In this document: one piece after another, positions 7,612 through 23,779 of the stretch
Layout of the letters: every line of letters starts with the position of its first letter
How positions within the stretch are numbered: position 1 is the stretch's first letter
From: Mucilaginibacter lappiensis
Lineage (GTDB): Bacteria > Bacteroidota > Bacteroidia > Sphingobacteriales > Sphingobacteriaceae
Assembly (NCBI RefSeq): GCF_900155965.1
Contig: NZ_FTMG01000016.1
Location: 6,035 to 30,034, forward strand
Direction: 5' to 3'
DNA: 24,000 nt
The notes under the pieces: generated by a model
Databases searched by the model: none
The model's input: only the letters and a program-made list of their open reading frames with translations
Told to the model about the DNA's origin: nothing
Made by a program: the position numbers and the translations under genes

Positions 7612-7679
7612 AAATTATAATATATCTGTTACGTGTTACGAAAATAAACAAAATCGTCAACAGCATTACGATAGGACAG

Positions 7680-8528: not shown

Positions 8529-8539
8529 AGCTTGTTTGT

Positions 8540-9616: not shown

Positions 9617-9660
9617 GATTATATAATTTTTATTGCTTTATGCCACCAATTATTTGTGAA

Positions 9661-9972
9661 CTAATAGCTATTTAACGCTGTCAAATAAACTACCTCTATC
9701 TCATCGTCTTTTATCTTCCCTTTCACGTAATCAAAGAACGTAGCAGCATAGTTATAAGTTTTATGTAATTCAAAAGCTTCCTGGTTTTGATACACCTCGT
9801 AATTAACAATAATCCGTGGCAAATCTTCCCGGGTATTCACCTGAAATAATTCGCAACCCGCTTCCTTGCGGGTTTCAATAGCCATTGTGACCATTGCGTT
9901 TTTTACTTCCTCCTCAAAACCCGGCAATATATCTATATTGGCGATCAACGTTATCTTACTATTCATGACCAA
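9661..9972 (-). CDS. Antibiotic-biosynthesis-monooxygenase (ABM) domain protein
   Basis: About 100 aa with a ferredoxin-like ABM pattern (GCELFQVNTREDLPRIIVNYEVYQNQEAFELH). The start could also be the Met two codons downstream (9966). Confidence 0.7.
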   Translation of the reverse strand: MVMNSKITLIANIDILPGFEEEVKNAMVTMAIETRKEAGCELFQVNTREDLPRIIVNYEVYQNQEAFELHKTYNYAATFFDYVKGKIKDDEIEVVYLTALNSY

Positions 9973-9989
9973 AATATTTTTAATATGTT

Positions 9990-10442
9990 TTATTGAGCGA
10001 TATCACTGATCATTTTATTAACGATGAGCCATTTGCCATCGATCTGATGGAAAGACAGTAACTCATGGTAATTGAAATCATACATTTTTACCTTTACCTC
10101 GGCAACGGCAATGGAATTTATTACCCTGATATCAATAATCTCCCCTTTAAATGGTTTGCCCGAATCTTTAGGGCTTTGGCGGTTTGCCACACCATCTAAA
10201 TATTGCTCCAGTGTTTTGGCATAGGGCTGTCCTTTTACATCACCAAATAATAATGTACCGCTGTAATAAATTTTGCTTAATGAGTTTACATCCCCTTCAT
10301 ATATTCCTTTGAAGTAGTGTTGTTCGAGCACCTCAGTGATGGCAGCTCTGCTTTGCTGATTACTTTCCATTTTCTTTAAGTTTTGTGCTTTAATGTTCTG
10401 CAAGGTACAGAACATTAAAGCGGTTAATAAAAGGGTTTTCAT
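9990..10442 (-). CDS. NTF2-fold protein (SnoaL-like / putative lumazine-binding type) with a signal peptide
   Basis: It has a signal-like N-terminus (MKTLLLTALMFCTLQNIKAQ). The core (HYFKGIYEGDVNSLSKIY...FHQIDGKWLIVNK) resembles the nuclear transport factor 2 family. Confidence 0.6.
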   Translation of the reverse strand: MKTLLLTALMFCTLQNIKAQNLKKMESNQQSRAAITEVLEQHYFKGIYEGDVNSLSKIYYSGTLLFGDVKGQPYAKTLEQYLDGVANRQSPKDSGKPFKGEIIDIRVINSIAVAEVKVKMYDFNYHELLSFHQIDGKWLIVNKMISDIAQ

Positions 10443-10443
10443 A

Positions 10444-11178
10444 TCAATTTAAATTATGCCCGGCTGCCATACCACCATCTACATTGATGATGGCGCCGGT
10501 AATAAATTTACTCTTGGCAACGGTATAAACCATTTCGGCAATGTCTTCCACTTCGCCTACTCGGTTTAGCAGATGTAAGCCAGCACTTTGGTCGGCTTTA
10601 TCGCCATGCATAGGGGTGCGGATAGTGCCGGGCGCGATAGTATTCACCCGGATGTTATCTTTACCAAACTCGCTTGCCAGCTGTATAGTAAGCGCTTGTA
10701 TAGCCCCCTTTGATGCCATTGGTGCAGTGATAGGAACTCCTGTAAGGGAGTGGTTCACTAAGGGTGTACCAATATTGATCACTACACCTTCGTGCTGTTT
10801 TAACATTTGTGGTATAACCGCCTGTGTGGTGAAATAGGTCCCTTTCAGGTTGGTATTCAAAAAGCGGTCGAGGTAAGCTTCATCCACTTCCAAAAAAGGT
10901 TTGGTTTCAAATATGCCTGCATTGTTTACCAACACATCTGCCGAACCAAATTTTTCGATGGCTTTGGCCACCAGCTGTTCGCCGGTTTGTTTATGGCTTA
11001 CGTTACCTGCTACCATGGCCAGGTTATCTCCGGCACCCAATTCGTTAAAAACTTGCTCCAATTTGTGGGCGGTTGAGGAATTGATCACTACATTATCGCC
11101 CTTTTCTAAAAAGTAACGGGCTATTTCTTTACCTATTCCGGATGATGCGCCGGTTACAATGACGGTTTGTTTTTTCAT
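10444..11178 (-). CDS. SDR family oxidoreductase
   Basis: It has the TGASSGIG motif, NNAG, and the typical 244-aa length. Confidence 0.88.
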   Translation of the reverse strand: MKKQTVIVTGASSGIGKEIARYFLEKGDNVVINSSTAHKLEQVFNELGAGDNLAMVAGNVSHKQTGEQLVAKAIEKFGSADVLVNNAGIFETKPFLEVDEAYLDRFLNTNLKGTYFTTQAVIPQMLKQHEGVVINIGTPLVNHSLTGVPITAPMASKGAIQALTIQLASEFGKDNIRVNTIAPGTIRTPMHGDKADQSAGLHLLNRVGEVEDIAEMVYTVAKSKFITGAIINVDGGMAAGHNLN

Positions 11179-11183
11179 GATTT

Positions 11184-11402
11184 TTATTTTTTATCGGCCG
11201 TAATACCTTTTTCTCTTAGCACGGATACTTGTTCACCGGCATAACCCCAATCGTCCAGGTCAACTTCCTGTATCACTACATGGGTTAAGTGCGGGTCTTT
11301 ATTGAGCGTACTGGTCAATAAATCGGTTACACCTTTTATTAAGGTTTGTTTTTGTTCACGGGTGACTCCTTCACGGGTGATTTCGATTTTTACGAATGGC
11401 AT
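11184..11402 (-). CDS. 4-oxalocrotonate tautomerase family enzyme
   Basis: 72 aa. It begins MPFVKIEI, giving the catalytic Pro1 after Met removal, and has the typical tautomerase length. Confidence 0.8.
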   Translation of the reverse strand: MPFVKIEITREGVTREQKQTLIKGVTDLLTSTLNKDPHLTHVVIQEVDLDDWGYAGEQVSVLREKGITADKK

Positions 11403-11413
11403 GGCTGTAATTT

Positions 11414-11965
11414 TTAAGCTAAAGCGGTTTCTGCAACAGCGTTAGCGGTGATGGTTACCTGTAATTCAAACTCATTGTAGATCAGGGTATCACCCAGGTC
11501 TTTGAAGAAATTGCCAGAACGAAACTTCATGCCGTATTTGGTACGGTCGATCACGATTTTGCCCGATGCGGTAATTGCATCGCCAGCATTTTCGATTTGC
11601 GCGTCGAACGCTACCGGATGGGTAAGGTCTTTAATAGTCAGGTCTCCGTTAATATGATAAGACCCATTTCCCTTCGGCACTGATGTGGTGATCACGAATA
11701 TAGCTTCGGGATATTGTTTTGAATTGAAGAAATCCTCAGAAGCCAGGTGACCTGCAAATTGATCGTTGGTAGCCGGATCGGTTATGTCCAGAATGTTGAT
11801 CGATGTAGTATCGATGGTAAACCGGCCGCCGGTAAGCTGGCCATTGTTAAGGGTTAAAGAACCTTCTTTAACAGAGATAGTTCCGTTATGTGCGCCGGTT
11901 ACTTTGCGACCAGTCCAGTCGATGTTACTTTTAGCGCTGGCGATTTTAAAATTTTGTGTTTCCAT
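11414..11965 (-). CDS. YceI family (polyisoprenoid-binding-like) protein
   Basis: 183 aa. The segments (WTGRKVTGAHNGT...FTIDTTSI...HLASEDFFNSKQYPEAIF...GDLTIKDLTHPV) are typical of the YceI family. Confidence 0.85.
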   Translation of the reverse strand: METQNFKIASAKSNIDWTGRKVTGAHNGTISVKEGSLTLNNGQLTGGRFTIDTTSINILDITDPATNDQFAGHLASEDFFNSKQYPEAIFVITTSVPKGNGSYHINGDLTIKDLTHPVAFDAQIENAGDAITASGKIVIDRTKYGMKFRSGNFFKDLGDTLIYNEFELQVTITANAVAETALA

Positions 11966-12020
11966 GTTTGTATGTCTTTAATGACAATACAAATGTGGGA
12001 AGGAACCGAGAGGAACTTAC

Positions 12021-12034
12021 GTGACCTACATCAC
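12021..12034. promoter_or_regulatory. CRP/FNR-type operator candidate 1 (GTGA-N6-TCAC)
   Basis: The sequence is cGTGACCTACATCACa. It lies upstream of the yceI-like operon start (11965) and downstream of the Crp-family gene. Confidence 0.5.
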
Positions 12035-12057
12035 ATTTAAAAAGGCTGTTAAATTAA

Positions 12058-12071
12058 GTGATGTACATCAC
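12058..12071. promoter_or_regulatory. CRP/FNR-type operator candidate 2 (perfect 14-bp palindrome)
   Basis: GTGATGTACATCAC equals its own reverse complement. Its centre lies 37 bp from the centre of site 1. Confidence 0.5.
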
Positions 12072-12082
12072 ATTTTGAATGA

Positions 12083-12655
12083 TCAGTGCTGATAAAGCCT
12101 GCTCAGTGTTTCTCTCGAAACCCCTAAATAAGCGGCAATGAGATGTTTAGGGACAATGTTGTAGAGTGCAGGATATTGAGCCAGCAGCTCTTCATAGCGG
12201 TGTTTAGCATCATTGTTCATGAATGATAATAACCTTTTTTGGGAAGCAACATAACCCTTATTGGTGCGCCAGCGAAAAAAATGTTCTACCTGGTGAATCT
12301 CGTTGCAAAGTTTTTCCCGGTCATCGTTTGACAGGCAGAGCACCTCAGCGTCTGTAATGCAATCCAAATTGATGGTTGCTTTAGCATTACTGTAAAGCGC
12401 GTTATAATCTGATGACCACCAGGTTGGCATAGCAAATTGGAGGATGAACATTTTAAGGTCATCATTGATATAGAATGACTTGAGGCAGCCATCCAGTACA
12501 AAGTATTCATGATCTACCTTGTCGCCCGCGGCAATAATAACCTGGCCTTTTTTGAAAGATTGCAGTTTGAAATGCGAAAAAAGATAATCGAACTGCTCAT
12601 CTGTTAACGATATAGTTTTAGCGATATGCTCTTTGAGTAATTCTTTTGCTTGCAC
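12083..12655 (-). CDS. Crp/Fnr family transcriptional regulator (cNMP-binding domain plus C-terminal HTH)
   Basis: 190 aa. It has the beta-roll pattern (FKKGQVIIAAGDKVDHEYFVLDGCLKSFY) and a C-terminal HTH (IAAYLGVSRETLSRL). Confidence 0.88.
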   Translation of the reverse strand: MQAKELLKEHIAKTISLTDEQFDYLFSHFKLQSFKKGQVIIAAGDKVDHEYFVLDGCLKSFYINDDLKMFILQFAMPTWWSSDYNALYSNAKATINLDCITDAEVLCLSNDDREKLCNEIHQVEHFFRWRTNKGYVASQKRLLSFMNNDAKHRYEELLAQYPALYNIVPKHLIAAYLGVSRETLSRLYQH

Positions 12656-13069
12656 AAATCAAAAATACTTAATGCATTTAATATTTTACATAGTTAAGAT
12701 AGGTTCGATATAAAGGGCTGGCCAAACTATTTCGACGAACATTAATGAACAAAAACTGGGTTAACATGAAAAGCTGCTATTTAGCATTAAAATTATATTA
12801 ACTTATTGATTTTTAATTAGTTAAATTTATTTCAACCATAAAAAGTGTAAACCATGTAAACCCACTTTTGTGATGAAATGGCCCGGCTATTTAGGGGTAT
12901 AGCCACCAAGGGGTATTGTTTAAAAAGGGCGTCATGCTGATTTCTATGATAAAAGCAAAAGGTTTTTAATTAAGAAAGCACTTTTTAATTCCCTCCCACG
13001 GGAGGGGTGCGTTGGGCAGGTGTAATGGCAGGGAGGGGTTTCTATGCACGATGATTATCCTGTTCCATA

Positions 13070-13579
13070 AAAGCCCCTTTCTCCCCTTCCCTCAATGTCA
13101 TTAAGTTAAGGGGAAACGCAAAAGCAATTCCGCAAAAGCCCCCTCTAAACGGCGACGCCCTCATGTAATAATCTCCCCCGGAAGGGGAGACTTAGCTTCA
13201 ATTTTTTAAAGTGCTCCCTACCGGGGAGGATTTAGGTGGGGCTCCATGTGCTTAACTTAATGACATTGCCCCTTCCCTAGGGAAGCTACTGTGTGTACAC
13301 ATCTTTTTGATAAAACCCCGAAGGGGTTTCATGTCGGTAGAAATAGGATCAAAAGAGGTTTACGTGCCGTAGGTACGTCACTATTGATCTTTGCAGGTCA
13401 AATAATGACACATCAATAGACCTGAATTAGGTTAGTTTAGTACCTACGGCACTAAAAAGAGGTAGAATTTTATTGTTTCTACCGACATTTTGCTCCTCTG
13501 GAGCGGCTTTTTCTAATTATTAGTGCATCAAAAAGATGTGTACACACAGTAGCCCTAGGGAAGGGGAGAAAGGGGCTTT
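13070..13579. repeat. Large imperfect palindromic element (possible MITE or structured element), interrupted by a nested insertion
   Basis: 13070-13092 (AAAGCCCCTTTCTCCCCTTCCCT) is the exact reverse complement of 13557-13579. After removing 13093-13278, the arm identity extends to 53 matched nt with one 3-nt indel. Internal arm pairs are 13331-13343 with 13476-13488, and 13364-13376 with 13440-13452. Confidence 0.7.
13093..13268. mobile_element. 176-bp MITE-like non-autonomous element with 18-bp perfect terminal inverted repeats (TIRs) and a 10-bp target-site duplication
   Basis: The TIRs are CAATGTCATTAAGTTAAG (13093-13110) and CTTAACTTAATGACATTG (13251-13268). The direct repeat CCCCTTCCCT flanks the element at 13083-13092 and 13269-13278. 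There is no ORF inside. Confidence 0.7.
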
Positions 13580-13593
13580 GGCTTCCTGAACGG

Positions 13594-13681
13594 CTGTCAT
13601 GCTGAGCCCCGTCTAAGTATGGTGGGCGGGCCTCTGCGCTCTACCCTTCGACGGAGCTCAGGGTGGCAGACCCCTTTTTTT
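13594..13681 (+). repeat. REP-like imperfect hairpin followed by a T-run (terminator-like on the plus strand)
   Basis: The arms 13594-13617 and 13646-13669 pair at 21 of 24 positions when read as plus-strand RNA (19 Watson-Crick, 2 G-U). T7 lies at 13675-13681. The GTCATGCTGAGC ... GCTCAG arm motif resembles intergenic repeats that are common in Sphingobacteriaceae (from memory). Confidence 0.5.
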
Positions 13682-13691
13682 AACATTTCTG

Positions 13692-14144
13692 TTACTTTAT
13701 TTTCAGGCTTTGGGCGGTTGCCAATAGCTCTTCCGCTGTCATAAAGCCTTCGGCTTTTTTGGCAATGCCGCCATCGGCATTTAAAAAGAACAGCGTTGGC
13801 GTTGCTCTGATCTTATACCTGTCGTTTAGCTTGTGCCCTTCGGGGCTATCGATATCAATGGCTACATCTACAAATTGCTGGTTGTATACATCACCCAATT
13901 TTTTCTGAACCAATACTTCCTGTTCCATTTTTTTGCAGGTAGGGCACCAGGAAGCATGGGCAAATACAAACAAAGGTTTATTTTCTGCTTTGGCAATTTC
14001 CTCGGCTTGTGCCAAAGAAGTGATTTTGAAATTTACCCCATCATGTGAACTTAACATGGGCTTGTATCTCCTGGTGCAGGAAGTAATACCGAAAGACAGG
14101 CCAGCAATGGCCGCGATCATAAATAATTTTTGAAATATTTTCAT
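13692..14144 (-). CDS. Thioredoxin-fold lipoprotein (Thioredoxin_7/DsbD-gamma-like, CxxC)
   Basis: It has a lipoprotein signal (LSFGITSC) and a WCPTC active-site motif within FAHASWCPTCKKM. Length is 150 aa. Confidence 0.8.
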   Translation of the reverse strand: MKIFQKLFMIAAIAGLSFGITSCTRRYKPMLSSHDGVNFKITSLAQAEEIAKAENKPLFVFAHASWCPTCKKMEQEVLVQKKLGDVYNQQFVDVAIDIDSPEGHKLNDRYKIRATPTLFFLNADGGIAKKAEGFMTAEELLATAQSLKIK

Positions 14145-14162
14145 TTGATTTTAATTAATAGG

Positions 14163-14810
14163 TTATGCAACTTTTAACTGGATTTTCCGAAAGATGATCT
14201 TATACGCCAGCACTACTCCGGTTAATAATAAAGTACAACCCAATACCCAGTTGATGAGATTGTGTTGGGCTTTCAACACATTCATGAGATAGTTTCCTGC
14301 GCAGCCGTAAATTAGAAACGCCAAGCAGGTACCCGTACCAATAGCCGTTATATATATGTTGTAATTAGCCGCATCGGAGTATAATACCTTTCTGCCTTTT
14401 AGTACCGCCGTCCATCCCAGCCAAAACGGAATATGGAGCGGATTAAGCAAACTGAGCACCAGTCCCGAGTAAAATGGCTGCATGCCTATAAATGGCAGGG
14501 TATCCTCAAAATTGCGCATGTGAAATGCCGCTTCCAGACTTTTATAGGCCAGGTACAAAATGGCAAAGCAAAATACCACACTTAAGTATCTGAATAGTTT
14601 TTGTAGATGACCCAACTTATCGAGTAAAAACAGCGCTACCCTAACCAGGCTTACTTCAACCAAAATGGCGGCAAACCCAAATTCAAAGGCACCCATGAAA
14701 TTATTATTGAGCGCATAATTGGCTACACTAGTATTTAAGGTACCAATAGGCAATGCCCCAATAAAACTAATACTGAAAGCGGCAAAAAATAATTTAAAAT
14801 ATCTGGACAT
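14163..14810 (-). CDS. LysE/RhtB-type small-molecule exporter-like membrane protein
   Basis: 215 aa with about six hydrophobic segments. The N-terminus (FIGALPIGTLNTSVANYAL) resembles the LysE-family translocator pattern. The family call is tentative. Confidence 0.55.
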   Translation of the reverse strand: MSRYFKLFFAAFSISFIGALPIGTLNTSVANYALNNNFMGAFEFGFAAILVEVSLVRVALFLLDKLGHLQKLFRYLSVVFCFAILYLAYKSLEAAFHMRNFEDTLPFIGMQPFYSGLVLSLLNPLHIPFWLGWTAVLKGRKVLYSDAANYNIYITAIGTGTCLAFLIYGCAGNYLMNVLKAQHNLINWVLGCTLLLTGVVLAYKIIFRKIQLKVA

Positions 14811-14812
14811 GG

Positions 14813-16600
14813 TTAGGCAATCAGTTTTAAATAGTTGGTATTATCTTTTAACATTTTCATGCCTTCTGTGTAGGTCATGTATTTAAGATTTTTATTTTTC
14901 AGGTTGATGGCGCTGATATCATGTAGAAGCTTCCAATGTTTCATGATCTCTTTCCAGGCAAAAAATATGGAATGTTTAGGGTCATAAATATGGGTAGGTT
15001 CGCTGCCAGCTCCGTTCAACTCGATGATAGTAAAGTTTTTTCCCTGGCATAGTTCTTCCCAGGTATTGTACATCACATCCATCCTGCCGAAATAAAACTC
15101 AGGTATCTGCCGGCAAACAGCATCAATATTTTGGGTTAATTCCTCCGAGATCAAATGTGTTAGATCAATAAATTTAGCGCCCCTGGCGTGGTTGCCATAA
15201 GGAACCAATACCCGCTTTTCGTCTAAAGGTAATATCTCTTGAAGTTCAGTAGCATGGGTGATCATTAGCTCGGGTAACTGCAACAAATAGCGGGGTTCTT
15301 TGGCCATCAATTCGGCAATGGTGGATATGCCATTACCCGTAACTGTTAAAAATTCCTTACCCACAATACCCGATATATGACCTTTATCCTCACCCGGAAT
15401 CCTGTAATAAAATATCCCTACCTCATGTTGATATGGAACAAAAGCCTGCACTAAAAAATCAACTTTCATGGATTGTACGTATTGAGTTAGTTCCTGGTCG
15501 TTGTATATTTTCTTAACCAGTATGCCCCGGCCGCCTATATCGGGTTTCAGTATTAGTGGATAGCTTAAATTTTCTTGTTTGATGACTTGTTTTATTTGTT
15601 CTATCGGTGTTCTTGCTTTAAAGAAAAAAGTTTCCGGTTTGTATGGTTCGGGCATCTGGTAATGGATGAGCCATTTGCTTTCCATAGCAAAGCCACCGTT
15701 TTCGATTTGAGGATTCGCGGTATTAAAAAAGAAAAACGAACGTGATTTGAAACTCAGCCAAAACCAGTAAAACATAATGGGTGCATACACCGAATTGAAT
15801 GACCAGTACTCCCAGTTAAAAAGCCTGATCAGGAAGCGTTTTACAGCAAAAAAGCGCGGCAATATACCTGATGGATATATCTGAGCGGGGCTTTCAATAG
15901 CAAGGTCATTTACATATTGTTTATTTTCTTTCAGATCTTCATAGGTCATGGTGATGTTGCCATGCATTACGCTAATATTGGTTACGCTCATTGTTTTCAT
16001 TTTTCCGTCGCGGTTAATAACCAGGCCGTCCCGCAGATCTCCTTCACCGGCGTGTTTGTGAAAGTGGAGGATGTCATTGGTAGTTTTGGGGTAATCGGAT
16101 CGTTGCCAGTTACTAAACCAGTTCTCCCGTTTACCGGCCGCCATTTGATCATATAATGTAGCTGACGACCAGATATGGGCTGTATTTATGCTGATGGATG
16201 TAGTATGTTTTTCTTCCCCATCCCAGCGGCATTCATACAATTCGCCCGAGGTATACAATATCAATGTGAATGGTTCAACACCATTCAAATCCGTGGTGTT
16301 ATAGTAATGGGCGGGTAGCTCTGCTTCGATAATTTCCTTCAATACAATTCCGCGGCTTTTCCGGTAATTTTCTTGTCTTGCATGTTTTACAAATGCGCCG
16401 TTAAGCAGTACCACCAGGTCGCCATTATTTTTGGCTGCTATCCAGCTACCATGCTTATCCGGATCTTTAGGATAAAGCAATTTCGCGTTCCCGGTGTTAT
16501 AAATTTCAGGAGCAAGGGCGATGCCCCGGGTTATATGCTCATCCCGATTGGAGGTCAGAAAGAAACCATCTTTGCCGGGAATATAGGTTACTGTGCACAT
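14813..16600 (-). CDS. Fusion protein with an N-terminal NRDE/TANGO2-like (Cys1, Ntn-like) domain, a hydrophobic linker and a C-terminal ATP-grasp ligase domain
   Basis: The N-terminus is MCTVTYIP...LTSNRDEH, which includes the NRDE motif. The middle is aromatic and hydrophobic (WEYWSFNSVYAPIMFYWFWLSFKSRSFFFF). The C-terminal half (PLILKPDIGGRGILVKKI...FLVQAFV...IELNGAGSEPTHIYD) looks like an ATP-grasp domain. Its start overlaps the DinB gene by 13 nt. Confidence 0.7.
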   Translation of the reverse strand: MCTVTYIPGKDGFFLTSNRDEHITRGIALAPEIYNTGNAKLLYPKDPDKHGSWIAAKNNGDLVVLLNGAFVKHARQENYRKSRGIVLKEIIEAELPAHYYNTTDLNGVEPFTLILYTSGELYECRWDGEEKHTTSISINTAHIWSSATLYDQMAAGKRENWFSNWQRSDYPKTTNDILHFHKHAGEGDLRDGLVINRDGKMKTMSVTNISVMHGNITMTYEDLKENKQYVNDLAIESPAQIYPSGILPRFFAVKRFLIRLFNWEYWSFNSVYAPIMFYWFWLSFKSRSFFFFNTANPQIENGGFAMESKWLIHYQMPEPYKPETFFFKARTPIEQIKQVIKQENLSYPLILKPDIGGRGILVKKIYNDQELTQYVQSMKVDFLVQAFVPYQHEVGIFYYRIPGEDKGHISGIVGKEFLTVTGNGISTIAELMAKEPRYLLQLPELMITHATELQEILPLDEKRVLVPYGNHARGAKFIDLTHLISEELTQNIDAVCRQIPEFYFGRMDVMYNTWEELCQGKNFTIIELNGAGSEPTHIYDPKHSIFFAWKEIMKHWKLLHDISAINLKNKNLKYMTYTEGMKMLKDNTNYLKLIA

Positions 16601-17088
16601 GCCTTCCTGTATTTAAGTGTGGAGGCCGCAACTCCAAATTCTTCAGGGATATCAATCTCCGATACAGCATTAATACCGATGCGGATAAGTGCCATGTGGT
16701 GAACGGTATGCTCCATATTGTAAACCAGTTCGCGTAAATAGTTAGTTACTACTTCTGCCTGGTGATCAGCATCGGCTCCGTACTCTACATGTAAAGCAAA
16801 GCTCTTGTCGGGCTTATCTAAATGATCAGCTATTTGATGTAGTGCTGCAATGGCTGCGTTTTTATCAGATTCGATAGCATGGTTCCGGATACGTTTATCA
16901 TAATCAACCACCCCGCTTTCATAACCTTTATACAGTTCGATAAAAAACTCCAGGATGTGGCGAGTATGCTGCCCTATGCTTGAATGGGATAATAATTTTA
17001 CGGGTTGTGTATACTGTTCGTTTGTAAGATTATCTATAACAAACTCCAGTTGCTCCAATAAATTTATTATTGGCTTTTTAAGTTTCAT
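16588..17088 (-). CDS. DinB family (four-helix-bundle, metal-dependent) protein
   Basis: 166 aa. It carries His-rich motifs typical of DinB/YfiT-like proteins (GQHTRHILEF and EHTVHHMALI). Confidence 0.75.
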   Translation of the reverse strand: MKLKKPIINLLEQLEFVIDNLTNEQYTQPVKLLSHSSIGQHTRHILEFFIELYKGYESGVVDYDKRIRNHAIESDKNAAIAALHQIADHLDKPDKSFALHVEYGADADHQAEVVTNYLRELVYNMEHTVHHMALIRIGINAVSEIDIPEEFGVAASTLKYRKACAQ

Positions 17089-17110
17089 GATGTTTAAATT
17101 TATTATTTGC

Positions 17111-17512
17111 CTATGCGTGAATAAATGGGATATAGGACACCAATTGTTTTCTGAATATCAACAGGAGGATGGAACAGCAAATAAAAACTGCTAATGCCAG
17201 TACAAATAATTGTCCTCCGTCGTTTTGTACAACGATGCCTAATTTGGTGAGGTGTGACAGCAGTGCACCGGCCATAATGCCTACTGCTAATAACGCACCC
17301 AGGCTGGTGGTTTTGGGAATTAACAACAGGATGGAGGCTATCAGTTCTAAAGAGCCGATCCCGATTCGTCCCCAGGGCTCTAAACCAAGGGTTGAAAAAA
17401 TATATACTGATTCCGGGGCTGCTGTAAACTTAAAATATAAGGTTTGGAGCATAATTATCGCGGCGGCAAGGCGCAATACCCAGGCTAAAATATTGATGGG
17501 TGTACTTGTCAT
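17111..17512 (-). CDS. DoxX family inner-membrane protein
   Basis: 133 aa with four hydrophobic helices. The pattern (LRLAAAIIMLQTLYFKF...GSLELIASILLLIPKT...GIMAGALLSHL) is typical of DoxX. Confidence 0.78.
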   Translation of the reverse strand: MTSTPINILAWVLRLAAAIIMLQTLYFKFTAAPESVYIFSTLGLEPWGRIGIGSLELIASILLLIPKTTSLGALLAVGIMAGALLSHLTKLGIVVQNDGGQLFVLALAVFICCSILLLIFRKQLVSYIPFIHA

Positions 17513-17523
17513 AATTTTATTTT

Positions 17524-18210
17524 TTAATGATGTTGGGCGATTGGGGTATGATTTGTAGCTAACCTCAATGCAGCCTTGGTTATATCACGACCAGCCTCTT
17601 GTTTGGATTGAAGCGGGAATGATTGAAATACCACATCTTTATTGATGATGGTGATCTTATTGGTATCAAAACCGAAGGTAGCTCCGCTATCCTGGGTTGA
17701 GTTTAGTACAATAAGGTCGAAGTTCTTTTTATATAGTTTATGTACTGCATTTTGCTCCTCGTTATTTGTCTCTAAAGCAAAACCTACTGCAATTTGATCG
17801 TTCCGTTTCACCTGCCCGAATTCACAGGCGATGTCTACATTCTTAACCATTTTCAGCTCAAATTCACTTGCCGATTTCTTCATCTTATAGGTGAAAATTT
17901 CGGCGGGTTTATAATCAGCAACCGCCGCTGCAAAAACAACGATCTGTGCCGATTGGAAATAGGGCTGGCTGGCCGCAAACATTTCATCCGCCGATTGAAC
18001 ATGAATAATGCTGAGGTTAGGATGAGCTAATGCTAAACCTACCGGGCCAGATACCAGGACAACAGTGCAACCCTGCTCTAAGAAAGCGGAGGCGATAGCA
18101 TAACCCATTTTGCCCGATGAGTGATTACTGATATAGCGCACCGGGTCAATGGCTTCCCGGGTAGGCCCCACGGTAATTAATACCAAAGGACCCTTTGTGG
18201 TGGTGTTCAT
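17524..18210 (-). CDS. Stand-alone CoaB-type phosphopantothenate--cysteine ligase domain protein (no CoaC flavoprotein domain)
   Basis: 228 aa. It aligns by eye to the C-terminal half of E. coli Dfp/CoaBC (ITVGPTREAIDPVRYISNHSSGKMGYAIA, AAAVADYKP, MVKNVDI, VGFALETNN). Confidence 0.85.
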   Translation of the reverse strand: MNTTTKGPLVLITVGPTREAIDPVRYISNHSSGKMGYAIASAFLEQGCTVVLVSGPVGLALAHPNLSIIHVQSADEMFAASQPYFQSAQIVVFAAAVADYKPAEIFTYKMKKSASEFELKMVKNVDIACEFGQVKRNDQIAVGFALETNNEEQNAVHKLYKKNFDLIVLNSTQDSGATFGFDTNKITIINKDVVFQSFPLQSKQEAGRDITKAALRLATNHTPIAQHH

Positions 18211-18216
18211 GACGGG

Positions 18217-18660
18217 TTAGTTATTGTCCTTTATTGCAGGCCATTTTTCATCGGCCGTTTTGATCAGGTTTTGCTGATCTTTTGACCACATCTCTTTCAC
18301 CTTGCTGTTGTAGTTGAAATAAAGCTTATCGTTTACTACTGTCCAGGTATCAGTTTGAGTAGGAGCCTTGTGCCCTTGTGATAAACCATAAGCGCAATAA
18401 CCACCATATTGAGGAGCATATTTATCCGGATCGGATTTAAATGCTTCCAGATTTTTGCGGGATGCGAAAAGCCAGGTGGCTTCTTTCCATTGGTAGCTCA
18501 GGCTATCAGAGCCCTTCATTGGTTTTGACTCTGTAAAAAAGGCAACTGGATCGTAACCTTTAATGGCTTTACCGCCAGGTGCAAATATTTCTGATTTTTG
18601 TGCTTTTGCCTGTGCTATTCCTAAAAAAGCGATGAAGGCGATAAGAATGGTGCGTTTCAT
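18217..18660 (-). CDS. Secreted YHS-domain protein (paralog B)
   Basis: It has a signal peptide. The motifs GYDPVAFF and YAPQYGGYCAYG match the YHS-domain proteins that are common in Bacteroidota. Confidence 0.75.
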   Translation of the reverse strand: MKRTILIAFIAFLGIAQAKAQKSEIFAPGGKAIKGYDPVAFFTESKPMKGSDSLSYQWKEATWLFASRKNLEAFKSDPDKYAPQYGGYCAYGLSQGHKAPTQTDTWTVVNDKLYFNYNSKVKEMWSKDQQNLIKTADEKWPAIKDNN

Positions 18661-18708
18661 ATGAATTATTTAATTAGTGTGCGAAATAAGTTTTATAGGG
18701 GAAATGGT

Positions 18709-19179
18709 TTACTGAATGATCTTGGCCCAGTTAGCATCGGCTTTTCTTTTAAGATTGCTTTCGTCTTTATCCCAGGATTTTTTGGTGTTATTAAAAAACT
18801 TATTGTAGAAAAGGTAAAGCTTACCATCAAGCAGTTTAAAAGTGCCGGGATCAATATCTACCTTCTCGCCGGTTGCTCCCATGGCATAAGCACACCAGCC
18901 GCCGTATTGTGGCTGATATTTAGCAGGGCTGGCTTTAAACAGATCCCTGTTTTGTATTGATGAAAAACGGTAGGTGATACCTTCTATAACGAGAGTAATA
19001 TCTTTTTTTCCTTCCTGAGCTTTGTGGGCGGTGAAGTAGGAAACCGGGTCATAACCCCTGATAGCTAATCCGGAATCATCCAGGTTAAATTGTTTTTTGT
19101 GAAATTCGGTAGCGTTTTGTGCTGAAGCTACGCGAATAATAAATAGAGCTGCAACAAGCAGGGCGAACATTTTTTTCAT
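18709..19179 (-). CDS. Secreted YHS-domain protein (paralog A)
   Basis: It has a signal peptide. The motifs GYDPVSYF and YQPQYGGWCAYA are present. It is a clear paralog of the adjacent gene. Confidence 0.75.
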   Translation of the reverse strand: MKKMFALLVAALFIIRVASAQNATEFHKKQFNLDDSGLAIRGYDPVSYFTAHKAQEGKKDITLVIEGITYRFSSIQNRDLFKASPAKYQPQYGGWCAYAMGATGEKVDIDPGTFKLLDGKLYLFYNKFFNNTKKSWDKDESNLKRKADANWAKIIQ

Positions 19180-19316
19180 GATCTTATTATCTTGATTAGT
19201 TGTTTTGCTGCTTTGTCGGAGATTACCGGCGATCCTTACAATAATTTTTAATTAATTAGCAAAGGGCCGGATAGATGAAGCTTGCGGAAGGGGAGACTTT
19301 CCTAGGATGTATTAAA

Positions 19317-19354
19317 GAAAAAGCCCCTGAATTCTAAAATTCAGGGGCTTTTTC
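19317..19354. terminator. Bidirectional rho-independent terminator ending the upstream PUL transcription unit
   Basis: It has a perfect 17-bp stem (GAAAAAGCCCCTGAATT / AATTCAGGGGCTTTTTC) and a 4-nt loop, with A- and T-rich flanks on both sides. It lies 33 nt downstream of the DUF3472-like stop codon on the minus strand. Confidence 0.85.
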
Positions 19355-19386
19355 TTTTTAGCCAGAACATATTACACTATTTATAT

Positions 19387-20508
19387 CTATGGCTTTTTTT
19401 CTTCCAAAACTGTTTTTTTAATTGGAGAAAGCTGACCAAAAATATCTGTTATCTGCAGGGCTATATAATAATCCTGGGCTTTCAGATTCATACCTTTAAC
19501 TAAAAAACCTGTGCTGGTGAGGTCCGGGTCAGTTCCTTTGATAGATGCAATGGGATTGCCAGCATATGAGCTATTTTCATATATTTTTATCTCATAGCTT
19601 AACTGTGGTGTTGCGGTTGGTAACATGCTCCAGTTTACAAAGATCTTTTTCTGTGAATGATCATAATAGGATGCCAGGTCATAAATACTAGCCGGCAGAA
19701 TCTCTGGTTTATCTTTTTGATGAGTGGGATAAAAAGTTTTCGGCTGTCCCGGAGTTGTACCGCATGAAGTTATTTTTACACCATCATTACCATATTTTTC
19801 CGCCTTCCATGAACCGTCACCTGCTTCAGCTACCAGGGAGTCCGGATGTGCCCATTTGTTCTGATCGGTTAACATCCAGTAAGATTTGTAAACCGCTGTT
19901 CTGGATCTTTTCTGCTCATCGGCAAAGTTTTCCAGGAAACTGCCAATATCGCCATGAAGCATAGCTTCCTTTTCGGGCACCACAAAGGTTACATAATGCC
20001 GGTAAGTTTTCTCGCTTTGGTCATATATCCAGTAACCAACCATTGTTGTAGAATCATTTACTGTCCATCGTTTTACAATATTGGTGTACCAATGATCGGG
20101 CTTCCAACCAAAATCGGCATGTGAGTGCAATCCGGTCCCCTCACCACCAAAGCCACCAACAAAAGTTAGCGGGTCCTTATACTGTGCTGATAACTGAACC
20201 TTGTTAGGAAAATCCCAGATGGAAAATATGTTATTGGGCATACGTGTTTCATTTAATCCCGCCTTTTGTATCCCGCAATAACCACCGCTTTTGCCAATAC
20301 CAAACTGCACACTGCAGGCATAAGTATATGGAGCCAAGCCATCTGCCGGAAACATCACATCAGCCATCATCAGTTCGGCTTTAATCTTATTCATTTTTAC
20401 CGTTTTTACATATGGCCCCCATTTTGGACAGCTCTGCTGAGCAAGGCTATATGTAGCCGTGGCTAGTGTTAGTATCGGAATAAAAAGGTACTTTATATTT
20501 AATTTCAT
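19387..20508 (-). CDS. Secreted DUF3472-like protein with a C-terminal Fn3/Ig-like module
   Basis: 373 aa with a signal peptide. The segments GKSGGYCGIQ...IFSIWDFP...GGFGGEGTGLHSH resemble DUF3472. The family call is from memory only. Confidence 0.5.
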   Translation of the reverse strand: MKLNIKYLFIPILTLATATYSLAQQSCPKWGPYVKTVKMNKIKAELMMADVMFPADGLAPYTYACSVQFGIGKSGGYCGIQKAGLNETRMPNNIFSIWDFPNKVQLSAQYKDPLTFVGGFGGEGTGLHSHADFGWKPDHWYTNIVKRWTVNDSTTMVGYWIYDQSEKTYRHYVTFVVPEKEAMLHGDIGSFLENFADEQKRSRTAVYKSYWMLTDQNKWAHPDSLVAEAGDGSWKAEKYGNDGVKITSCGTTPGQPKTFYPTHQKDKPEILPASIYDLASYYDHSQKKIFVNWSMLPTATPQLSYEIKIYENSSYAGNPIASIKGTDPDLTSTGFLVKGMNLKAQDYYIALQITDIFGQLSPIKKTVLEEKKP

Positions 20509-20532
20509 GTGCTTTAAATAAGCTTAAATTAA

Positions 20533-21528
20533 CTAGTTGTGTGCTGCATCTATCGTTTGTTCTACTACCAGGTAAGAGCCCGGTACGTATATGCGTATAG
20601 GGAACCGAAGATTCAAACTATACATTCCATCGGGTAATCCGTCATTATGCACAAACTGGGTAGGTATCCTCTGGTAAATATTAAATTGGTTACCTAAGGT
20701 ATTTAATGGAAATGGCGTAAATGGGAATCTAAACACCGAGGCATCGTCGGTATAATAATATGATTTAGTGTACTGCTGTAATGATTGTAAGTAAGGCGGA
20801 TTAGGATTTAACCCAGCGGCCGGCCGGCTGATGATCTCTCCTTTTTTAGGATTAAAAAATACGCCGTTTTTATCCTTATACTTAACAGTGATCACATTCG
20901 GGGTATCAGCAACTCTGGTTACCGTTAACAATGGCGGTTTACCCACTACAGATTTACTTTCATTACCAACCATTATCCTGGTTTCGCTGGTTGATCCTAT
21001 AGTTGGTATCGACTCAAAGGTGGTGGTATCCCGGAGTAAGAAATCGCCTATTTTGGGGTATACTTTTGTCCCAGTTTCGTTTTTTATTTCCAGGTCAAAT
21101 TGATATTCTCCGGCGGGTAGTTGTAGGGCTCCGTAGTTGCCTAATATCTGGCCACTGGAAGGGTTAATGGAAATAGGCGCTACATTAATGGTTTTAAGTT
21201 TAGCATTGATTAGTTGCAGGGTGGTATCTGTTTTAGGGTCATACAATCCTGTCCAAACAGAAACGGGGTATGTTTTGCTAAACAGATCATCTACAATTTT
21301 ACCGGTTGCTTTATCATAAAAATGGATCACTTTTACCGAAAAAGGTTGCGAGGTCCCGTCGCCATTCAATCCTGCACTAAGAAATGCCCGCCCTTTTGGA
21401 ATGATGATAGGGCTTTGCTCATAATGAATATATGGGCTCAAAAAGCCAGTGCCTGTTTTTTTACATGCGTAGCTTGTTACTAAACATATAATGAGTAATG
21501 GGATATATATAAAGAGGTTACGTTTCAT
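20533..21528 (-). CDS. PUL-associated surface lipoprotein (DUF5007-like)
   Basis: The ORF track starts at 21576. The Met at 21528 gives a lipoprotein signal (MKRNLFIYIPLLIICLVTSYAC) and removes the overlap with the upstream gene. Its position after the SusD and fasciclin genes is typical of DUF5007 genes (from memory). Confidence 0.55.
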   Translation of the reverse strand: MKRNLFIYIPLLIICLVTSYACKKTGTGFLSPYIHYEQSPIIIPKGRAFLSAGLNGDGTSQPFSVKVIHFYDKATGKIVDDLFSKTYPVSVWTGLYDPKTDTTLQLINAKLKTINVAPISINPSSGQILGNYGALQLPAGEYQFDLEIKNETGTKVYPKIGDFLLRDTTTFESIPTIGSTSETRIMVGNESKSVVGKPPLLTVTRVADTPNVITVKYKDKNGVFFNPKKGEIISRPAAGLNPNPPYLQSLQQYTKSYYYTDDASVFRFPFTPFPLNTLGNQFNIYQRIPTQFVHNDGLPDGMYSLNLRFPIRIYVPGSYLVVEQTIDAAHN

Positions 21529-21535
21529 GTTGTGG

Positions 21536-22225
21536 TTATTGTTTAAAAAATAAAACATGTGAGTTACTAAGCACATTAAGTTGGCCTGTTGAAGTGGTAA
21601 GACCTGTTGTTTGGCACAGTACCCGAACCCCTACGGTATCTGGTATGTCTGATGCTACTACAACATTGGGTAGTTTCCCTTTTATAAATGTGTAGTACTC
21701 TATACTCGGAGCAGTACTGGTTGCAGAGGTGTAGCCTAAATTAGGGTCATATGTTTTTTCGAACGATACTACCGCCTGGCTCCCGGTTTTGGAAGTATTG
21801 AAAACAACCCCATTTTCGGTTAGTGAACCATAAGTTACTGTTTTAGGAATGATGTAAGTGTTCAGTGAATCTTTAAAAACGTTCAGATCGTATTTGATCA
21901 ACGTATCGATACTATACCTGGCAAAGGGATTCTTTTTTTGAGCCTGTAAAGTTTTTGCTTGTAAATAATTGTTAATGGCAAAATCTGTTGGTGCATAAAA
22001 TGTGATACCTTTTTGATTGATCACATCTTTTAATCCAGCCTTATCAACCACCAATAATAAAGTATCAAACATATTATATCTGTTACTTTTTAAATAATCA
22101 TAAGTGCTTAAAGTTGTGGTTGTGTTTTCCAGTTTACCACCAACGATATAATCGTTTTTTTTGCATGAAACCAGTATGATACCGGCCAATGCAGAAATCA
22201 TAAAGAATTTAATTATATTTTTCAT
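21536..22225 (-). CDS. Fasciclin (FAS1) domain lipoprotein
   Basis: It has a lipoprotein signal (ILVSC). The segments LLLVVDKAGLKDVINQKGITFYAPTDFAINNYL are typical of a FAS1 domain. Confidence 0.7.
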   Translation of the reverse strand: MKNIIKFFMISALAGIILVSCKKNDYIVGGKLENTTTTLSTYDYLKSNRYNMFDTLLLVVDKAGLKDVINQKGITFYAPTDFAINNYLQAKTLQAQKKNPFARYSIDTLIKYDLNVFKDSLNTYIIPKTVTYGSLTENGVVFNTSKTGSQAVVSFEKTYDPNLGYTSATSTAPSIEYYTFIKGKLPNVVVASDIPDTVGVRVLCQTTGLTTSTGQLNVLSNSHVLFFKQ

Positions 22226-22246
22226 TTTTTTATCTGTTTAAGTGAA

Positions 22247-23779
22247 TTATTGACCTGCTGATGCCCACCATGCATTTTGTGTTAGCAATGGATCCTGCGG
22301 TAAAAGTGTCCTCAAATCAAGCGGCCATAAATAGCCCCGGTTAGTTATGCGATTAGGCAAGTAGCCATCGATAGAATTATCATAGTTGGGGTTCGTGATA
22401 AGACCCGATCGTACAAGGTCAAAATACCATTGCCCTTCACCGTATAATTCTCTTCCCCGCTCGTCCATTATGGTATACAGCAAATCGTTTTGACTGGTAA
22501 AAACATAAGGATCAAGACCTGCTCTTTGACGTACTCGGTTGAGATACATTAAAGCGCTTCCCGTATTTCCCTGATTCAGATCAGCTTCGGCTTTTAGTAA
22601 GAAGATATCGGCAAGACGTAAAACAACCATGTTGTTGCTTACAAAAGGAAGCGTTTGCTGTTGTGGGTTTTGGTATATCACGTTGGCATACTTAACCATT
22701 AGGGTGCGGGCGCTTTGCAAACCATAAAAGGTTGATTTTATACGTACATCTTTTTTTGAGGCAGTGGTATCATATAAGCTATTAACCAGGTCCTTATTTA
22801 CCGACCATCCATAGCTTTTACCTTTTACAAATGGATCTCCTAAAAAAACCGAAAAAACGTTATTGTTGTTATCATTGGTAGCATCCCCGCGCTGTGCTTC
22901 ATTCTGATTGGGAGAATAGATCATGTTGATCTCAAAGATGCTTTCCGGGCTTTGGCCTTTAAAGATATGAGAAAAGTTGGCCCCTGTTTCAAGCGAATAC
23001 CCACCGTGTTGTATAACGCTATCGGCTGCTGCTGATGCCAATTGATATTGCTTTTGCCACATATACACCTTTGATAAAAGCGCAAATACTGATCCTTTAC
23101 CCGCCTGAACAGCAACTTGTGAGGCATTGGAATAATTATAACTTAAAAGGCTGGCACTTTTTTTCAGATCACTCACTACCTGGTTAAAACCATCCGCATC
23201 TTTGCTTCGGGCAATCGGCTTGGCGTTGATAGGATCTGTATAGGCTTGAGTAACAATCACAGGTTCTCCCCAAACTTGTGTGATATAATAATAGCAATAA
23301 GCCCTTATGAAATAAGCTTCGCCCATAATTTGATTTTTAGTAGCAACAGGATCATCCTGGAAATTGGCTGCGGCTATATTGGGTACCTTACTCAATATCA
23401 AATTACACTGGCTTATAACCTGGTAAAAACTGGTCCAGTTATGTAATATTGGTTCGCGATAAGGTACGTAGTTAAAGTTCCATTGATTGATAGAGCTTAA
23501 ACTGCCCAATTCAAAATTTTCATAAGCCGAAAATTCATTGGCCGTTGCATCACCAAAAATGAAATAAGCCTGGCCATTTGTTAAGGCTGTACGCAACAGG
23601 CCGTATGCACCTGCCAGTCCGCTTTCGGCAGCTCTTTCACTTGTCCAGAAATTATTGTCGGTTGGTGTATCAATTGGGCCTTCGTTAATGTACTTTTTGC
23701 AGGATGTAATTAATCCAACGCCGCAAATAATTATAGCTATAATGTATTTATTTATATACTTTTTCATCTGTAATTTCAT
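22247..23779 (-). CDS. RagB/SusD family nutrient-binding outer-membrane lipoprotein
   Basis: 510 aa with a lipoprotein signal (GLITSC). TPR-like SusD hallmarks are present (AYFIRAYCYYY..., RLADIFLLKAEA, ERGRELYGEGQWYFDLVR). It lies directly downstream of the SusC-like gene. Confidence 0.9.
   Translation of the reverse strand: MKLQMKKYINKYIIAIIICGVGLITSCKKYINEGPIDTPTDNNFWTSERAAESGLAGAYGLLRTALTNGQAYFIFGDATANEFSAYENFELGSLSSINQWNFNYVPYREPILHNWTSFYQVISQCNLILSKVPNIAAANFQDDPVATKNQIMGEAYFIRAYCYYYITQVWGEPVIVTQAYTDPINAKPIARSKDADGFNQVVSDLKKSASLLSYNYSNASQVAVQAGKGSVFALLSKVYMWQKQYQLASAAADSVIQHGGYSLETGANFSHIFKGQSPESIFEINMIYSPNQNEAQRGDATNDNNNNVFSVFLGDPFVKGKSYGWSVNKDLVNSLYDTTASKKDVRIKSTFYGLQSARTLMVKYANVIYQNPQQQTLPFVSNNMVVLRLADIFLLKAEADLNQGNTGSALMYLNRVRQRAGLDPYVFTSQNDLLYTIMDERGRELYGEGQWYFDLVRSGLITNPNYDNSIDGYLPNRITNRGYLWPLDLRTLLPQDPLLTQNAWWASAGQ

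Follow-up and report, generated by a model that had tools for sequence, protein, structure and literature searches.

A conserved DinB-NRDE-ATP-grasp operon of Mucilaginibacter lappiensis as a candidate envelope defence system

The 24,000-nucleotide stretch of DNA from the soil bacterium Mucilaginibacter lappiensis analysed here (assembly GCF_900155965.1, contig NZ_FTMG01000016.1, positions 6,035 to 30,034; the whole stretch is called the window below) contains eight consecutive open reading frames (ORFs), all on the minus strand and spanning 13692-19179, which encode two secreted YHS-domain proteins, a stand-alone CoaB-like ligase, a DoxX-type inner-membrane protein, a DinB-superfamily protein, a fusion of an NRDE/TANGO2 domain with an ATP-grasp ligase domain, a predicted LysE-family exporter and a thioredoxin-fold lipoprotein (Table 1). 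We describe this operon, its conserved core and the evidence that it may serve in the defence of the cell envelope against thiol-reactive stress. The intergenic distances computed from the ORF coordinates were 48, 6, 11, 22, -13, 2 and 18 nt, which bore out the tightly packed eight-gene layout described in the initial annotation, an earlier reading of the same letters. The 595-residue NRDE-ATP-grasp protein was 100% identical to an NCBI entry of Mucilaginibacter lappiensis. The family assignments made earlier held when Pfam and NCBIfam profiles were used, with the DinB_2 match of the window protein staying below threshold, and the signal peptides on both YHS proteins and on the CxxC lipoprotein were visible in the sequence.

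Table 1 Features of the operon and of its boundaries in the window
Feature	Positions	Strand	Basis
YHS1, secreted YHS-domain protein	18709-19179	-	NF041384, 137.5 bits; signal peptide
YHS2, paralogue of YHS1	18217-18660	-	NF041384, 159.2 bits; signal peptide
CoaB-like stand-alone ligase, without CoaC	17524-18210	-	DFP domain, E 6.6e-64
DoxX_2 inner-membrane protein	17111-17512	-	33 bits against a cutoff of 26; four hydrophobic segments
DinB-superfamily protein	16588-17088	-	DinB_2, 20 bits, under the 24.8 cutoff
NRDE/TANGO2 Ntn-hydrolase-like domain, residues 1-245	15866-16600	-	TANGO2 profile, 40.4 bits
ATP-grasp amide ligase domain, residues 246-595	14813-15865	-	weak RimK ATP-grasp match; fold model
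LysE-family exporter (predicted)	14163-14810	-	LysE, 47 bits; five hydrophobic segments
Thioredoxin-fold lipoprotein	13692-14144	-	Thioredoxin_2, 64 bits; WCPTC motif
Bidirectional intrinsic terminator	19317-19354	.	hairpin fold; A-run and U-run flanks
Predicted ECF-sigma promoter, TGTAAGG-N15-CGAC	19215-19240	-	motif match
GC-rich hairpin 3' of the last gene	13594-13669	-	fold energy; no U tract

A hairpin flanks the operon on either side. Upstream, a strong hairpin with a 20-bp stem (within 19310-19362; -29.9 kcal/mol, z = -8.2) comes after the stop codon of the DUF3472 gene at 19387, and this structure, which had been annotated earlier as a strong terminator, closes the DUF3472 gene and insulates the operon. 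The hairpin that had been proposed as the downstream boundary is also real (within 13590-13675; -38.1 kcal/mol, z = -2.6) and adjoins a repeat-rich 1-kb non-coding stretch, but it has no U tail and is therefore not a canonical intrinsic terminator. Terminator-like sites inside the operon were at chance level, with 8 found and 7.9 expected, and a scan of the window against Rfam matched no family.

We fetched 80 genomic loci with a profile of the 595-residue protein, for which at least 501 genomic matches exist; the loci span Sphingobacteriales, Chitinophagales, Flavobacteriales, Cytophagales and Saprospiraceae. The eight operon proteins were mapped onto these loci and all neighbouring ORFs were clustered. 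All eight genes occur in identical order in two other Mucilaginibacter genomes (L002 and L003), so the arrangement is not a chance feature. Across the 80 loci, the DinB gene was found directly upstream of the NRDE gene in 77, DoxX in 63, YHS in 58 and LysE in 34-36, while thioredoxin was found in 5 and the CoaB-like gene in 4 (three Mucilaginibacter and one Pedobacter). The conserved core is thus YHS, DoxX, DinB, NRDE and ATP-grasp, often followed by LysE, and the CoaB-like and thioredoxin genes are lineage-specific Mucilaginibacter add-ons; synteny extends to all eight genes in the close relatives and not to these two genes in the wider family. Other genes recur as extras in part of the loci: DM13 in 27, an extracytoplasmic function (ECF) sigma factor in 23 and its partner of 80-115 residues in 22, YceI in 15, outer-membrane beta-barrel proteins of two kinds in 12-14 each, an alpha/beta hydrolase in 10, and DUF1223 and a HAD hydrolase in 8 each. 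The NRDE-ATP-grasp protein has 2034 related protein clusters, and a scan of 1.84 billion representatives returned 2722 relatives of the ATP-grasp half, some of them outside Bacteroidota. Literature searches for the combinations NRDE with ATP-grasp, YHS with DoxX and TANGO2 with DinB found no description. The regulatory shell and several of the parts are of known kinds, the core of DinB, NRDE, ATP-grasp and exporter is in no pathway found in the searched literature, and the operon is, as had been supposed, apparently uncharacterised.

The stop codon of the DinB gene lies inside codons 4-5 of the NRDE gene through a 13-nt overlap at 16588-16600, and this overlap, ATGTG[CT]ACAGTAA, was kept in 65 of 70 DinB/NRDE pairs, where it also fixes the DinB C-terminal CAQ. 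Among 27 DinB orthologues, 11 matched DinB_2 (best E 4.6e-10) and 5 matched the DinB profile. H41, R43, H44, H127, H130 and H131 are invariant, and all of these except R43 belong to a His-rich predicted metal site, which is thereby conserved. Sequence and profile searches against solved structures were uninformative for this protein, with the DinB-like 3dka at E 0.38, and its single-sequence AlphaFold2 model was unusable (predicted local distance difference test, pLDDT, 41.8).

The N-terminal half of the fusion protein matched the NRDE/TANGO2 family (PF05742) well above the cutoff of 22.6 bits (E 5e-10) and carries Met1-Cys2 and an SNRDE motif, in which C2, S17, R19, D20 and E21 are invariant and N18 nearly so in 55 sequences. 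We modelled the fusion with AlphaFold2 from 55 homologues (mean pLDDT 88.4) and compared the model with the PDB by Foldseek, which gave 287 matches at E <= 0.001. The N-terminal half matched human TANGO2 (9bwa, E 2e-9, TM-score on target 0.64; 8sv7, 4e-9) and also the C45-like protein 3gvz, and the best matches apart from TANGO2-like structures were ATP-grasp ligases. TANGO2 has an N-terminal nucleophile (Ntn) hydrolase fold, in which Cys2 is the proposed nucleophile and was modelled as oxidised in the crystal structure, and it resembles acyl-amide hydrolases and acyltransferases (PMC12359130). The fold of the C-terminal half matched the ATP-grasp module of GshF (3ln6, E 1.6e-10), cyanophycin synthetases, Ddl and ArgX, and its nucleotide- and Mg-binding residues K352, G356, G359, E527 and N529 are invariant (KPxxGxxG and E-x-N). 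A conserved, aromatic-rich helical segment precedes the ATP-grasp domain; we rejected it as a membrane span, given a Kyte-Doolittle maximum of 0.7, and it is at most an interfacial helix.

The NRDE part (about 240 residues) and the ATP-grasp part (about 350 residues) are always adjacent, as separate genes in about 60 of the 80 loci and as a fusion in about 20, so that the second ligase fused to an Ntn-like domain, as read in the initial annotation, is correct for the window and represents two separate genes in most relatives. The split genes are often in frame with a single TAA between them (L006-L080, for example L014 10001-11788). Selenocysteine insertion or read-through at this stop was considered and rejected, since TAA was used in 40 of 47 in-frame cases and the stop lies in a variable linker; for the same reasons, the fusion in the window arose by stop loss and not by recoding.

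The ATP-grasp domain was also found fused to membrane proteins. A LysE-ATP-grasp fusion (P0280) belongs to a homologous operon (L085) that also contains genes for the sigma and anti-sigma factors, DoxX, DinB and NRDE; DedA/VTT-ATP-grasp fusions exist, for example in Leptospiraceae, and an alpha/beta-hydrolase-VTT-ATP-grasp fusion exists as well. A locus with 69% GC that is not from Bacteroidota (L086, 385-7377) encodes a 1121-residue NRDE-alpha/beta-hydrolase-VTT-ATP-grasp fusion, which is preceded by a DinB_2 gene and a divergent YHS gene and adjoined by an OlsF-like bifunctional acyltransferase that was in none of the other fetched loci. These fusions with LysE and DedA/VTT support that the ligase works next to a membrane transporter, and the one with LysE backs the coupling of ligase and export suggested earlier for this operon; L086 shows that the link between YHS, DinB, NRDE and ATP-grasp extends beyond Bacteroidota. 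The same ATP-grasp family was also fused to a C-terminal YqcI/YcgG domain and to MORN repeats (P0352 and P0275).

The predicted promoter ends 35 nt upstream of the YHS1 start codon, and its motif has exactly one match in the window, with 0.12 expected. A common motif, TGTAAGG-N14-17-CG[AT]C, was found upstream of the sigma genes and the first operon genes in related loci. It was counted 44 times in 1.45 Mb of these loci, compared with 3.1 times in shuffled sequence, and 32 of the 44 matches were at most 200 nt upstream of YHS, ECF sigma or zinc anti-sigma (ZAS), DM13, DoxX or DUF1223 genes; a secreted AhpC/TSA protein, DUF1223, DM13 and Met-rich secreted proteins are among the further products encoded behind it. 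Many homologous operons have the motif without an adjacent sigma gene, which indicates that regulation in trans is usual. In two loci (L003 6230-6601 and L012 3103-3330), the genes directly behind the motif encode small secreted proteins with a very high content of Met, Lys and His; they could be copper or oxidant sinks, and none is encoded in the window.

All 22 small partners of the sigma factors carry C-x25-H-x3-C-x2-C without a membrane span and match NF052368 (antisigmaE), and the sigma factor is closest to TIGR02943. The spacing of these ligands is that of Streptomyces RsrA and Neisseria MseR, which are soluble zinc anti-sigma factors that depend on their cysteines to function (PMC2893595), and the Caulobacter sigmaF site GTAACC-N16-CGAA resembles the motif in the window (PMC3511200). 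Related ECF regulons of Haemophilus, Neisseria and Caulobacter respond to hypochlorite or metals (PMC7907618, PMC2893595, PMC3511200, PMC11626156) and contain bufferin operons, in which a DoxX gene lies beside a gene for a signal-peptide Cys protein (PMC7907618, PMC11626156, PMC12452194). The promoter common to the operon and to the genes for sigma factors and RsrA/MseR-type zinc anti-sigma factors supports the thiol and redox theme of the initial annotation and points, by analogy with these regulons, to thiol-reactive stress in or near the envelope as the most likely inducer, namely hypochlorite-type oxidants, disulfide stress or possibly copper. The window also contains a second, unrelated ECF sigma gene (1999-2592), which is followed by genes for a membrane-bound anti-sigma factor with HxxxCxxC (2589-3044), two small membrane proteins and a TonB-dependent-type outer-membrane beta-barrel (4006-6456). 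This sigma/ZAS pair (1999-3044) was considered as the regulator of the operon and rejected, as it belongs to a different family with 20-30% identity.

The periplasmic parts of the operon fit the same theme. YHS1 and YHS2 are paralogues with 36% identity, and both score above the 70-bit cutoff of NF041384, "YHS domain-containing (seleno)protein". Each has a single Cys (Cys96 in GWC of YHS1 and Cys89 in GYC of YHS2), which is invariant in GG-x-C, and selenoprotein members of the family have selenocysteine at that position in the motif GxU (PMC13188914, PMC1976440), which marks the Cys as redox-active. Searches of solved structures by sequence and profile were uninformative for YHS, with YHS-like repeats of adenylate kinase 9 as the outcome. 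The thioredoxin-fold protein combines a lipoprotein-type N-terminus (…GITSC) with its WCPTC motif, and no conserved cysteine was found in the DoxX alignment.

The CoaB-like protein could be aligned over its full length with CoaB domains of solved structure (E 4e-48 and 4e-40) and retains the PVRYISNHSSGKMG, AAVADY and KMKK motifs, which we take to hold the counterparts of E. coli CoaB R206, N210 and K289. From its full-length alignment and retained motifs, it is probably a genuine CTP-dependent cysteine ligase. Its score of 202.2 bits is below the 219.7 cutoff of the CoaBC equivalog, and a Pfam scan of the window ORFs of at least 110 residues detected no flavoprotein CoaC domain. The best 120 homologues of this protein are all stand-alone proteins of 218-274 residues with PF04127 alone and at least 57% identity.

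The clade of stand-alone CoaB proteins was also found in a second type of conserved cluster in five Chitinophagales-type genomes (L081, L083, L087, L088 and L089), together with tandem YHS_seleno_dom proteins, an HbpS-like protein, an SGL propeller and a short-chain dehydrogenase (SDR). Three of these five loci also encode a secreted HExxH protein, one genome has a DM13 gene and one a PRK-like kinase; a divergent Ferric_reduct-Rieske fusion and an S8 peptidase face the cluster. A different motif, TGTAA(A/T)T-N5-6-CGACAG, lies upstream of the YHS genes in L081, L083 and L087. The CoaB paralogue travels with YHS proteins rather than with NRDE and ATP-grasp, and a plain housekeeping role is argued against by the linkage of the clade to YHS in nine genomes, where it is never beside a CoaC gene. 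The cysteine ligase step that the initial annotation had placed among the cytoplasmic enzymes building the compound is not part of the conserved system, since the CoaB-like gene was its sole basis for "cysteine-derived" and is, like the thioredoxin gene, rare across the loci, and neither a cysteine-derived, cysteine-containing nor a metal-binding product is supported for the family. A cysteine-derived exported compound, made by way of phosphopantothenoyl-cysteine, is possible for Mucilaginibacter and is not the general function of the family.

Starting from the gene order, its conservation, the promoter motif, the fusions, the folds and the motifs observed above, we infer a possible inducing signal, chemistry, direction of transport and periplasmic use as follows. 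The operon would be a thiol-stress-induced envelope defence operon, in which a ligase/amidase module produces a small amide and LysE carries it out to Cys/Sec redox proteins of the periplasm; we give this reading a probability of roughly 0.4. The eight genes would form one transcription unit read from the ECF-sigma promoter, and thiol-reactive stress would induce it by inactivating a soluble zinc anti-sigma factor, as judged by homology. The ATP-grasp domain may form an amide bond on a small carboxylate through an acyl phosphate, and the NRDE domain, as an Ntn hydrolase acting through Cys2, may cleave such an amide in the manner of glutathionylspermidine synthetase/amidase (Gss) or may alternatively supply the amine in the manner of class-II amidotransferase-synthetases. 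DinB, translationally locked to NRDE, would carry out a metal-dependent and probably thiol-directed step. LysE would then export the product, the two YHS proteins, each with one redox-active Cys, and the CxxC lipoprotein would use or recycle it in the periplasm, and DoxX would connect the system to the membrane. In Mucilaginibacter, the module could receive phosphopantothenoyl-cysteine, or a cysteine amide like it, from the CoaB paralogue, which would make a cysteine-derived product plausible there and not in general.

Known systems offer partial precedents for this proposal. In Gss of E. coli and in trypanothione synthetase-amidase, as here, an N-terminal Cys amidase is combined with a C-terminal ATP-grasp-type synthetase and linked to thiol stress. 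Oxidation of the amidase Cys of Gss switches the amidase off, and the product accumulates. The amidase of Gss is, in contrast, CHAP/papain-like, whereas NRDE has the Ntn alpha-beta-beta-alpha fold, the ATP-grasp subfamily also differs, and NRDE and ATP-grasp are usually separate genes here that are tied to DinB and an exporter. In class-II glutamine amidotransferase-synthetases, of which asparagine synthetase B is one, an ATP-dependent carboxylate-activating domain comes after an N-terminal Cys Ntn domain, a layout that NRDE-ATP-grasp shares. The synthetase here is ATP-grasp and not PP-loop as in asparagine synthetase B, and NRDE is nearest to TANGO2, acyl-amide hydrolases and acyltransferases rather than to the PurF type (PMC12359130).

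The likeness to glutathione synthesis is limited. The ligase module of GshF, to which the ATP-grasp half is closest in fold, attaches an amino acid to the carboxylate of a cysteine, but sequence identity is only 15-18%, cyanophycin synthetase and Ddl score nearly as well, and the window has no GshA-like gene to act as a partner. The ATP-grasp half gave weak generic matches (7ta5, E 0.42) instead of membership in the glutathione synthetase family, and no GshA, BshA/B/C or MshA/B/C/D family was among the profile matches in the operon. Compared with CoaBC, the CoaB-like protein shares the catalytic motifs and the full-length CoaB alignment but differs in the absence of the CoaC domain, in its score below the equivalog cutoff and in its separate, YHS-linked clade.

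For the regulatory shell, the closest parallels are the bufferin operons and ECF regulons of Caulobacter sigmaF, Neisseria sigmaE-MseR and Haemophilus RpoE2, which have in common with the loci studied here a TIGR02943-type sigma factor, a Cys/His zinc anti-sigma factor, a GTAA…CGA-type promoter, DoxX and a signal-peptide Cys protein, and which respond to hypochlorous acid (HOCl) or metals (PMC3511200, PMC2893595, PMC7907618, PMC11626156). Unlike them, the window showed no MNIO/DUF692, DUF2063 or DUF2282 in the Pfam scan of its ORFs of at least 110 residues and has instead DinB, NRDE and ATP-grasp enzymes and a periplasmic YHS domain, with an exporter often present in the family. SigR-RsrA of actinomycetes is alike in its soluble ZAS anti-sigma factor, in the identical ligand spacing and in its thiol-redox regulon (PMC2893595), but it belongs to a different phylum and sigma group, and the regulon here is largely periplasmic or membrane-bound.

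Several observations weigh against the proposed envelope defence by an exported amide. LysE is absent from more than half of the 80 loci, YHS is absent from 22 of them, with incomplete contigs in some of these, and the CoaB-like and thioredoxin genes are rare. The window lacks the cognate sigma/anti-sigma pair, and the best 120 matches to the operon-linked sigma factor included none from M. lappiensis. The DinB_2 score of the window protein is under the cutoff, and DoxX is dispensable in the bufferin system (PMC11626156). Some of the structural neighbours of ATP-grasp (cyanophycin synthetase and ArgX) are ligases whose substrates are peptide or protein C-termini, the closest folds to NRDE, acyl-amide hydrolases and acyltransferases, act on lipidic substrates, and TANGO2 binds acyl-CoA through its NRDE motif (PMC11867700).

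An alternative in line with the last two of these observations (PMC12359130, PMC11867700) is the remodelling of membrane lipids. The ATP-grasp domain would then form an amide at the free carboxyl group of a membrane lipid or lipo-amino acid, such as an ornithine- or glycine-type aminolipid, NRDE, or the alpha/beta hydrolase in some genomes, would remove the modification or transfer an acyl group, and LysE or DedA/VTT would flip the product to the outer leaflet, giving an MprF-like layout of synthase, flippase and hydrolase. The fusions of ATP-grasp to DedA/VTT and alpha/beta hydrolase, the aromatic-rich helix ahead of ATP-grasp, the YceI and outer-membrane beta-barrel genes in 12-15 loci each and the OlsF-like acyltransferase beside the four-domain fusion of L086 are all consistent with lipid chemistry. 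We nevertheless consider it unlikely, because it leaves DinB, YHS, DoxX and the thiol-sensing regulator without a role, the OlsF-like neighbour does not recur, and the aromatic segment is too weakly hydrophobic to span a membrane. LysE-family proteins, moreover, are known to export small amino-acid-like molecules.

The genes may alternatively have no pathway in common, so that one operon would hold a stress regulon of co-regulated but independently acting parts, namely redox proteins of the periplasm, a membrane protein linked to quinones, enzymes of detoxification and an exporter, with the CoaB-like protein raising coenzyme A synthesis under thiol stress or being the housekeeping CoaB. The gain and loss of many parts between genomes, the same promoter in front of unrelated periplasmic redox genes and the presence of every motif of a genuine phosphopantothenate-cysteine ligase are in line with such a regulon. 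The invariant adjacency of the core genes, the conserved 13-nt overlap and the repeated fusions, however, argue that DinB, NRDE, ATP-grasp and exporter are a physical or metabolic unit, and the placement of the CoaB clade in accessory YHS-linked clusters is unusual for an essential housekeeping gene, so independent action also seems improbable to us.

Maturation of secreted proteins, in which DinB, NRDE and ATP-grasp would modify YHS or another secreted Cys protein before export as MNIO/DUF2063 enzymes do for bufferins, is very unlikely even though the regulatory shell is the same (PMC11626156, PMC7907618, PMC2893595) and several ATP-grasp fold neighbours act on peptide or protein C-termini, since in about a quarter of the loci no YHS gene lies within 7 kb of DinB-NRDE-ATP-grasp, each YHS protein is a folded domain of some 150 residues and not a short precursor peptide, the bufferin enzyme and precursor families are missing from the window ORFs scanned, and a ligase fused to a small-molecule exporter argues for a small product.

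The proposed exported amide can be made more specific, at the cost of becoming rather doubtful. The DinB-NRDE-ATP-grasp-exporter module might make and turn over a new small thiol or metal-binding amide, based on phosphopantothenoyl-cysteine in Mucilaginibacter and exported by Bacteroidota to protect the periplasm, and NRDE/TANGO2 proteins might be redox-switched amidases that act on bonds of the pantothenoyl-cysteine or pantetheine type.

The DNA on both sides of the operon was also inspected. Between the thioredoxin gene and a Crp-like gene, a 1-kb non-coding stretch (12656-13691) contains nested perfect inverted repeats (13070-13092/13557-13579, 13093-13110/13251-13268, 13269-13282/13553-13566 and 13285-13311/13527-13553), which look like one element resembling a miniature inverted-repeat transposable element (MITE) inserted into another; the stretch had no Rfam match and no copy in 89 fetched loci. 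Further downstream on the minus strand (6685-12655) is a series of redox and detoxification genes, whose products are a Dyp-type peroxidase, two short-chain dehydrogenases, a nitronate monooxygenase, a lumazine-binding-like protein, YceI and a Crp-family regulator, and YceI, Crp-like and SDR genes recur near homologous operons too. The upstream neighbours (19387-23779) encode the DUF3472 protein, an unassigned 347-residue protein, a fasciclin-domain protein and a SusD-family protein, which appear to belong to a polysaccharide-utilisation-type locus with no relation to the operon.

The gene set is widespread in soil, freshwater and marine Bacteroidota, in which periplasmic redox buffering is poorly understood, and if the proposed reading is true, the operon would show how many of these bacteria defend the envelope against thiol-reactive stress. 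Through it, the NRDE/TANGO2 family also becomes accessible in bacteria; the biochemical function of this family is contested and clinically relevant, and TANGO2 deficiency responds to vitamin B5, a precursor of coenzyme A (PMC11867700; 10.1101/2022.11.04.514597). The pairing of NRDE with an ATP-grasp ligase, with DinB and occasionally with a CoaB paralogue indicates which kind of reaction to test, and if NRDE/TANGO2 proteins were indeed redox-switched amidases, the human TANGO2 family would gain a concrete biochemical function to test.

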